DNA from: Dictyostelium discoideum
Taxonomy: Eukaryota
Reading direction: 5' to 3'
NCBI GenBank assembly: GCA_000004695.1
Contig: CM000154.2
Location: 352,001-416,000 of the forward strand
Length of the DNA: 64,000 nucleotides
The notes under the pieces are model-generated. The model saw only the letters and a list, made by a program, of their open reading frames with translations. It was not told the DNA's origin and searched no databases. This document shows, one piece after another, positions 17,718 through 19,186 of this stretch. Position numbers and translations under genes: made by a program. Every line of letters starts with the position of its first letter. The stretch's first letter is position 1.

Positions 17718-17724
<7 letters not shown>

Positions 17725-19186
17725 GAAAGTGAAATTGATTGAACTCTAATAATATCACTATTTGAATCATCATAACCAGATAGAGTAATAGCATAGAATT
17801 CATTTCTATAGAATCTTTGAAGTGGAACGCTAATTGTATTGTATGAATCACCATCATCAATAAATGATGAATCAATGTATGGTTCTAATGAAATTGAGAG
17901 TGGAATTTTTTCACCTTTGGTTAAGAGGTTAACTTGAGTATTTGAAATGATTTCTTTAAAACCTAAAATGTTGATGTTGAGGGTTCTTTTGCCTTTACTT
18001 GATAAACAATTGGATCCAGTTGCACATTTAAAGAATAAAACATTTCCAAGTATTGGTCTAGTTTCATAATATTCAACCTCCTTCTTTGAATATGGACCCC
18101 AACTTGCACTTGAGAATTCTCTTTCCAATTTACCATCTCTCATAATATATTGGAAAATGGTTGATTTATGTTTTCTGGACTCTTCTGCTGCAGCTTTTCT
18201 CTCTATATCACGTTGCATTTGTTCTCTTTCTTTTTCTCTTTGCAATTCAAGATACTCATCATTTTGTCTCTTTCTTCTTATGGCTTGTTCTTCTTGATCT
18301 CTTTGTCTTTCTTCTCTTTGAAGTTCTTCACGAGATGGTCTTTGTGGGTATTCTTCTCGAGATGGTCTTTGTGGTTCATGGTAATGATATGCACCTCCAC
18401 TGGAAATCATTATATCAGCACATGTTAAATAATATTCCTTTGGATTAAACTCCCAGAAAAATTGAAGAATATATAAACCTGGAGAAATATCCATTGGTAA
18501 ATCAAAACATGCAGTACATGTTGCATTATTTGTATTTTCATAATATTTTGTACAGTTTCCAAATGGGCTTGAATGGATTGAATTTTGGAAGAATACATCT
18601 TGACTTGGATCTGCGGGCTAATTTTTAAAAATTAAAAAAAAAAAAGAATTTTAAATAATCAATAAATGTAAAAATTAATAATTAAAATAATAATAAAAAT
18701 AAACATACAGCATCTGATGTCATTTTTGGAGAAAGGTAGAAACTAACGGTACCAGCTCTTAATGCAGTCGCATGGTTTCTTGCTGGCCATTGTGGGCAAA
18801 TCTTTTGACCTAATTAAAATAAAAAGAAAATTCAAAAAAAAGTAAGTAAAAAGTTTTTTAAAAAAAAAAAAAATTAAAAAATTATATATACCAGCTTGGA
18901 AATTTCCCATTGGATGTTTTGAACTATAAAGATTGGTAATTGAAGAACTTCTTCTTTGTGCTGGGCCACATGATTGACCCAATTCAGTTGGGTATGGTTT
19001 TGTGAATTTACCTCTTTGGAATAAGAAACCATCGCCTTGTTGTTCATAAAATCTATAGTTTCTTGGGTATGCTGCACATGAATTTGAACCAAAATCCCAA
19101 TCCACACATTTCATAAATGAATGTGATTCAATTTTACCAAATAATAATACAAGTAGTACTGTTAAAAATAATATTATTTTTTTCAT
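17718..19186 (-). CDS. Secreted protein with an N-terminal His1-start domain showing LPMO-like (AA9-like) hallmarks, a charged coiled-coil linker and a C-terminal domain of about 130 aa. 3 exons: complement(join(17718..18617,18709..18809,18892..19186)), 431 aa
   Basis: The signal peptide is MKKIILFLTVLLVLLFGKIES, followed by HSFMKCVDWD. Exon joins are GTATAT/..TTAG (phase 1) and GTATGT/..TTAG (phase 0). The catalytic-domain-like segment ends with PGLYILQFFWEF...KEYYLTCADIMISSGG. This resembles the AA9 motif PGNYVLRHEIIALH...QNYPQCINLQVTGGG. A second His lies at mature position 70 (SKHPMGN). Confidence 0.65.

Follow-up and report, generated by a model that had tools for sequence, protein, structure and literature searches.

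A Dictyostelium discoideum protein that joins a predicted lytic polysaccharide monooxygenase-like domain to a CBM8-like module

Lytic polysaccharide monooxygenases (LPMOs) changed the view of polysaccharide breakdown, and with each new family the range of known substrates and biology has grown. The AA11 enzymes are fungal and chitin-active. AA18, listed as the newest LPMO family in the literature that was searched, is believed to be a bacterial metagenomic enzyme with another fold. An LPMO is recognised by a mature protein that starts with histidine after a signal peptide, by a second conserved histidine, and by an N/Q/E-x-F/Y motif near the domain C-terminus, which has been described as a general LPMO active-site feature (PMC5320794). 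The axial residue of AA10 and AA15 is usually Phe according to a 2026 review (PMC13353379), and 'LPMO14' is a fungal and oomycete family in whose description dictyostelid members are not mentioned (PMC5320794). In Dictyostelium discoideum, the family 8 carbohydrate-binding module (CBM8) of the endoglucanase CelA (DdCBM8) binds cellulose and soluble beta-glucans, notably glucomannan, via W572, W574, Y600 and Q686 (PMC9079177). Here we describe DDB_G0287529, a D. discoideum gene within a stretch of 64,000 nucleotides (contig CM000154.2, positions 352,001 to 416,000; the whole stretch, which is AT-rich with 24% G+C, is called the window below). Its product carries a predicted LPMO-like domain (N-domain), a charged linker and a C-terminal CBM8-like module (C-domain).

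We propose that the DDB_G0287529 protein as a whole is a polysaccharide-oxidising enzyme, with a probability of roughly 0.65 to 0.7; copper binding and catalysis are both predicted. It is very probable that the N-domain has an LPMO fold with a histidine brace, the candidate site being formed by His1, His90 and Tyr174 (numbering of the mature protein). Database entries for the protein already exist, as 'hypothetical protein DDB_G0287529' and, in UniRef, under the automatic LPMO-type name 'Chitin-binding type-4 domain-containing protein', and its relatives fall within a catalogued domain of unknown function, DUF7492 (PF24320). Literature searches found no paper that deals with DDB_G0287529, DUF7492 or amoebozoan LPMOs, and the supplement of the CBM8 paper gives no accession for the DDB_G0287529 protein.

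Gene model, leader and conserved residues

DDB_G0287529 is a minus-strand gene of three exons that occupies 19186..17718 of the window. The ATG is at 19186, a GT donor directly follows 18892, and splicing yields a coding sequence of 1296 nucleotides, stop included, for 431 amino acids. The parts of the gene are as follows.

18892..19186, minus strand: exon 1, codons 1-98 plus 1 nucleotide, covering the signal peptide and mature residues 1-77
18810..18891, minus strand: intron 1, 82 nucleotides, GTATAT...TTAG, phase 1
18709..18809, minus strand: exon 2, 101 nucleotides, coding for QKICPQWPARNHATALRAGTVSFYLSPKMTSDA and containing the invariant His90
18618..18708, minus strand: intron 2, 91 nucleotides, GTATGT...TTAG, phase 0
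17718..18617, minus strand: exon 3, codons 133-431 and the stop TAA at 17720..17718

The spliced 431-residue product is identical, by exact-sequence look-up, to XP_637170.1 (EAL63664.1, UniRef100_Q54K85) of D. discoideum AX4, which bears out the three-exon model given in a preliminary description of this DNA and the Dictyostelium origin guessed there. Independent support for the splicing comes from the orthologues, whose alignment has no gaps at either exon junction. No paralogue was found when the window was searched with the protein by tblastn. A run of about 50 unbroken T (A on the gene strand) at 17672-17719 starts right after the stop codon.

The protein begins MKK-IILFLTVLLVLLF-GKIES|HSFM, a signal-peptide layout in which MKK, 13 hydrophobic residues and GKIES are followed by His. 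A conserved His stands right behind an equivalent hydrophobic leader in all 38 full-coverage homologues, the leader having small residues at positions -1 and -3 and the mature protein starting with HSW, HSF or HSQ. This arrangement, together with the invariance of His1, supports the view taken in the preliminary description that the protein is secreted with a mature N-terminal histidine, and the mature protein is accordingly listed here as starting with His after a predicted signal peptide. The features of the protein, each with its position in the window, are:

19124..19186, minus strand: predicted signal peptide, residues 1-21 (MKKIILFLTVLLVLLFGKIES), with n, h and c regions
18390..19123, minus strand: predicted LPMO-like catalytic domain, mature residues 1 to about 187, its coding sequence interrupted by both introns
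19121..19123, minus strand: His1 codon CAT (precursor His22), invariant in 39 of 39 sequences, predicted N-terminal brace ligand
18796-18798 and 18507-18509, minus strand: Cys82 and Cys148 codons, a perfectly covarying pair
18772..18774, minus strand: His90 codon CAT (precursor His111) in the motif WPARNH, predicted second brace histidine
18429..18437, minus strand: Glu172-Tyr173-Tyr174, codons GAA TAT TAT, E/Q-x-Y motif with the predicted second-sphere Glu and axial Tyr
18168..18389, minus strand: charged linker, precursor residues 209-282, 74 residues, 66% E/R/K/Q/D
17721..18167, minus strand: C-terminal CBM8-like beta-sandwich module, precursor residues 283-431

Homologues of the N-domain were collected by an exhaustive phmmer search of 1.84 billion (1.84e9) representative proteins with mature residues 1-194 as the query. 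At E<=1e-3 it returned 288 homologues, of which 73 reached E<=1e-10 and 5 reached E<=1e-30, so the resemblance described below is not due to chance. Word-indexed protein searches gave no match with the N-domain and C-domain profiles and 11 with the family profile; the protein's own cluster evidently lies outside that index.

Conservation was counted in an alignment of 39 sequences (A1), in which H1, S2, C6, C16, R21, H90, G158 and W166 are invariant and C52, Y66, P71, G78, W85, N89, C145, W164, Y174, C177 and D179 are conserved in at least 90%. The second conserved histidine is His90, which stands in the exon 2 motif WPA[KR]NH and is present in every sequence (39/39), flanked by Asn89 and Trp85, each retained in 37 of the 39. 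A histidine is indeed found at mature position 70, as first described, but the role of second copper ligand that had been given to it does not hold, since 24 of the 39 sequences have Tyr or Phe at this position and His90 is invariant instead. Close to the end of the domain, the strings PGLYILQFFWEF and KEYYLTCADIMISSGG occupy mature residues 157-168 and 171-186, and Glu172-Tyr173-Tyr174 conforms to the N/Q/E-x-F/Y motif. Position 172 is Glu in 23 sequences and Gln in 5 (Glu or Gln in 28/39), and Tyr174 is retained in 38/39. Cys82 and Cys148 covary perfectly, both being present in 11 sequences and neither in the other 28, as would fit a facultative extra disulfide in dictyostelid and some protist members. 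The alignment and the structural model are supported by this covariation because it fits a real disulfide.

The N-domain family was found across the Dictyostelia and in many protists. The three-part architecture is shared by orthologues in Tieghemostelium lacteum, Heterostelium album, Acytostelium subglobosum and Cavenderia fasciculata, close copies of the protein are found in D. firmibasis, and a related N-domain is present in the amoebozoan Cavostelium. Relatives at a greater distance were found among marine eukaryote transcriptomes and metagenomes. Among 150 relatives, the Pfam domains fused to the N-domain are WW (9), CBM1 (3) and GH5 cellulase (2), with single fusions to a chitin-binding hevein-type (CBM18-type) domain, laminin G and PAN. 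A polysaccharide substrate is favoured by the carbohydrate-active partners, namely GH5, CBM1 and the chitin-binding domain.

Two sets of relatives depart from this pattern. Four of them (P0016, P0018, P0021 and P0036) have a C-terminal WW domain and hydrophobic segments resembling membrane anchors; a WW domain would be cytosolic, and a cytosolic-type WW joined to an extracellular copper domain is an odd pairing. An A. subglobosum paralogue (P0014, XP_012755651.1) shares the linker and the CBM8-like end; its His1 is replaced by Asn (…TMA|NYMDC), and the YPMG…WPARNH segment is missing. From its sequence, it would be either a catalytically dead derivative or the product of a gene-model error that drops an exon.

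Predicted fold and place among the named families

The AlphaFold2 model computed from A1 is mostly beta (mean predicted local distance difference test score (pLDDT) 85.9, predicted template-modelling score (pTM) 0.86). In this model, the N-domain adopts the immunoglobulin/FnIII-like beta-sandwich, superposable on solved LPMOs, that the preliminary description had proposed as a check. Its match list contains LPMOs and LPMO-like proteins only, with the following structural match scores.

AA15 (5msz, 21% identity): 12.4
AA10 (4oy7): 12.3
Fusolin: 12.0
AA11 (4mai): 11.5
AA13: 11.1
AA9: 10.6
X325: 9.0
AA16: 8.4
AA14: 8.1

By sequence, the closest solved structures are those of AA11. A search of the PDB with the single sequence gave two AA11 LPMOs as the best matches, at E 0.3-0.9 and over the C-terminal motif only. 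The family profile reached the AA11 structures 4mah (8e-6), 9exj (2.7e-5) and 7p3u (9e-5), and an amoebozoan sub-profile gave a stronger match to AA11 (E 7.5e-8). The match is confined to the last ~45 residues of the N-domain, where Glu172 and Tyr174 align to Glu138 and Tyr140 of AoAA11 (4mah). We take Tyr140, numbered from the alignment of the single-sequence search, to be the axial ligand of AoAA11. The glutamate in place of the glutamine of AA9 had been thought unusual; as Glu172 aligns with Glu138, it is normal for AA11-type sites. DDB_G0287529 and the AA11 enzymes (AoAA11, 4mah/4mai; A. fumigatus AfAA11B, 9exj and 7p3u) are thus alike in the Glu and Tyr of the C-terminal motif, whereas the N-terminal half of DDB_G0287529, with HS[WFQ]xxC and WPA[KR]NH, has no AA11 counterpart and the appended module differs. 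Similarity to AA11 across the whole catalytic domain was not found.

The two families that rank first by structure gave no such link, the family profile having no sequence match to AA15 or AA10 structures at E<=10. The DDB_G0287529 protein has no match to LPMO_10 (PF03067, AA10/AA15-type), which is matched weakly by 5 of the 39 aligned relatives (best E 1.6e-3) and, among the 150 relatives, by one at 1.5e-5. The UniRef name of the protein suggests that an earlier LPMO_10-type model did match. Unlike the Phe that is usual in AA15 (Thermobia domestica TdAA15A, 5msz) and AA10 (ScLPMO10C, 4oy7), the predicted axial residue here is Tyr.

The family borders on DUF7492, which itself has no assigned function. 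Of the 150 relatives, 37 match DUF7492 at E<=1e-4 (best 5.8e-17), several carry it as a precomputed Pfam domain, and the relatives as a group straddle its gathering cut-off; the dictyostelid orthologues have no match to it at E<=0.01. The possibility that DUF7492 is simply AA11 was considered and rejected, as no match to DUF7492 was obtained with AA11 fragments. Judged by sequence tests against Pfam and the PDB, the N-domain is a member of the LPMO superfamily outside AA9, AA10, AA11 and AA15.

The charged linker and the CBM8-like module

Between the N-domain and the C-domain, the linkers of the orthologues vary in length and composition, with Q-rich stretches, QQYQAP repeats and short forms, a variability of the kind that a spacer would show. 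Among the dictyostelid orthologues, the last ~150 residues show weak conservation; they matched no Pfam model. A profile of the C-domain matched the CBM8 of D. discoideum CelA (7t7y) with E 1.8e-7 over essentially its whole length, and the four positions without variation in alignment A2 of the C-domain, two Gly and two Cys, all carry the same residue in DdCBM8. The C-domain has both sequence and fold homology to DdCBM8 and is a divergent CBM8-homologous module, with ~11% identity to DdCBM8 of CelA (7t7y/7t7z). It had been described as an unrelated domain of about 130 residues; it has about 150 and is CBM8-like. Nor is the architecture atypical, as had been supposed, signal peptide, LPMO-like domain, linker and CBM being an ordinary modular plan.

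Proposed function, alternatives and genomic surroundings

On the reading we prefer, secretion and cleavage after Ser21 would expose His1, whose amino group and side chain, together with His90, would bind a single copper ion as a histidine brace, at the flat face of the beta-sandwich. Tyr174 would lie below the metal in the axial position, with Glu172 in the second shell. The 74-residue charged linker would tether the LPMO-like domain to the CBM8-like module, and the module would dock the enzyme on a beta-glucan surface, most likely that of cellulose or of a related beta-1,4-glycan, whether the cellulose of the organism's own stalk and spore coat or an environmental polysaccharide. Reduced copper with O2 or H2O2 could then oxidise C1 or C4, so that the glycosidic bond would break. 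Cellulose specifically as the substrate is a tentative suggestion, with the odds somewhat against it.

Several results weigh against an enzyme of this kind. The DDB_G0287529 protein reached no Pfam LPMO model in a single-sequence search, and its best Pfam match, DUF7492, reaches 12.5-12.9 bits where the cut-off is 27 and is limited to the C-terminal quarter of that model, so that it falls outside DUF7492 as defined. A profile of the N-terminal half alone, which includes both histidines, matched no solved structure in the PDB. The predicted model of the C-domain is moderately confident (pLDDT 65.5). The ligand platform of DdCBM8 (PMC9079177) is not conserved in the C-domain, where W574 is kept and the other three residues are Ala, Gly and Ser; carbohydrate binding by the C-domain and its specificity are therefore uncertain. 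Searches for expression or biochemical data on DDB_G0287529 found none.

The main rival, to which we give an outside chance, is a copper-binding LPMO-like protein of the fungal X325/Bim1 type that is non-catalytic and acts in copper capture, homeostasis or cell-surface redox signalling. The N-domain model does match X325 (LaX325, 6ibh), but the catalytic families AA15, AA10, AA11, AA13 and AA9 all outscore it. The catalytic-type E/Q-x-Y is conserved and aligned with the Glu and Tyr of AoAA11, and a CBM8-like module is present here, as are CBM1 and GH5 in relatives. X325/Bim1-like proteins are marked by a glycosylphosphatidylinositol (GPI) signal and the absence of the catalytic E/Q-x-Y, whereas the C-terminus of DDB_G0287529 (…RVQSISLSN) is hydrophilic and has no hydrophobic GPI-type tail.

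Somewhat less probable again is a non-enzymatic protein of the stalk or spore-coat matrix, binding polysaccharide or serving a structural purpose and merely retaining an LPMO-like fold. Dictyostelium secretes many cellulose-binding matrix proteins, the C-domain is CBM-like, and the Acytostelium protein without His1 and the WPARNH segment indicates that non-catalytic derivatives may exist. The invariance or near-invariance of His1, His90 and Tyr174 in very distant protists is nevertheless hard to explain without a metal site.

It is very unlikely that DDB_G0287529 is a bona fide AA9 member of CAZy. The spacing of H1, H90, E172 and Y174 is AA9-like, and the amoebozoan sub-profile matches AA9 structures (E 4e-3) across some 95 residues, a stretch that includes the strand after the second His and the Q/E-x-Y-x-x-C-A block; the same sub-profile also matches one AA10 at 0.064 and AA13 at 0.084. 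Two relatives (P0049 and P0097) pass the Pfam AA9 model (PF03443, gathering score 27.8) at 28.1 and 28.8 bits. The DDB_G0287529 protein itself, however, has no match to that model at E<=10, and its dictyostelid orthologues likewise have no AA9 match. AA11 is better by sequence and AA15 and AA10 are better by structure, Glu stands here for the second-sphere Gln of AA9 (GH61), and the loop from the second His to the next strand is ~5 residues longer. Of the kinship with AA9 that was first proposed from the C-terminal motif, what stands is the homology of this motif to its counterparts in AA11 and AA9. A specific relationship to AA9 is not supported, because no Pfam LPMO model is reached and significant sequence similarity is to AA11, confined to the last ~45 residues.

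Chance resemblance or a mis-predicted gene with no LPMO-like domain, for which the single-sequence AA11 match at only E 0.3-0.9 and the lack of a Pfam LPMO match might speak, is refuted as far as computation can do so by the exact match to the annotated product, the 288 homologues, the confident model with its LPMO-only structural matches and profile E-values down to 7.5e-8.

The genes around DDB_G0287529 provide no functional context. Those identified in the window are:

10168-11766, minus strand: intronless acetyl-CoA hydrolase/transferase open reading frame of 532 amino acids, both domains at E about 1e-38 each
15784-17081, plus strand: two adjacent open reading frames of 259 and 155 amino acids, directly upstream and on the opposite strand to DDB_G0287529, with no Pfam match
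24738-32911, plus strand: talin-type gene, with FERM domains at 25218-25829
26021-32911, plus strand: talin-type open reading frame of 2296 amino acids with talin rod segments, an I/LWEQ domain and a C-terminal villin headpiece
57584-57654, minus strand: tRNA-Gly (GCC), the sole tRNA in the window

The 259- and 155-residue open reading frames may be exons of one gene. An AAT repeat of ~180 nucleotides at 17420-17600 on the plus strand encodes the poly-Asn tail of an upstream plus-strand open reading frame (17326..17553).

The assignment of DDB_G0287529 is computational and describes an ordinary architecture inside a known superfamily; neither the architecture nor the presumed chemistry is surprising. 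If the N-domain represents a family of its own, the likely sequence marks would be an HS[WFQ]xxC start, a second histidine in WPA[KR]NH and a WxWEF...E-x-Y-x-x-C-A-D end. Members of such a family would occur in Amoebozoa and in numerous protists of sea and soil, with CBM8-like, CBM1, GH5 and transmembrane/WW partners. DDB_G0287529 may define its own AA family. That the N-domain is a separate LPMO family and, in addition, that Dictyostelium uses the copper enzyme for remodelling its own cellulose, in stalk and spore formation or germination and not in feeding, is a doubtful proposal at present. An LPMO-type protein in a genetically tractable organism that builds cellulose would offer a route to the roles of LPMOs outside biomass decay, and the first biochemical study of such a protein would supply an annotation for several hundred others that are now hypothetical or assigned to a DUF.
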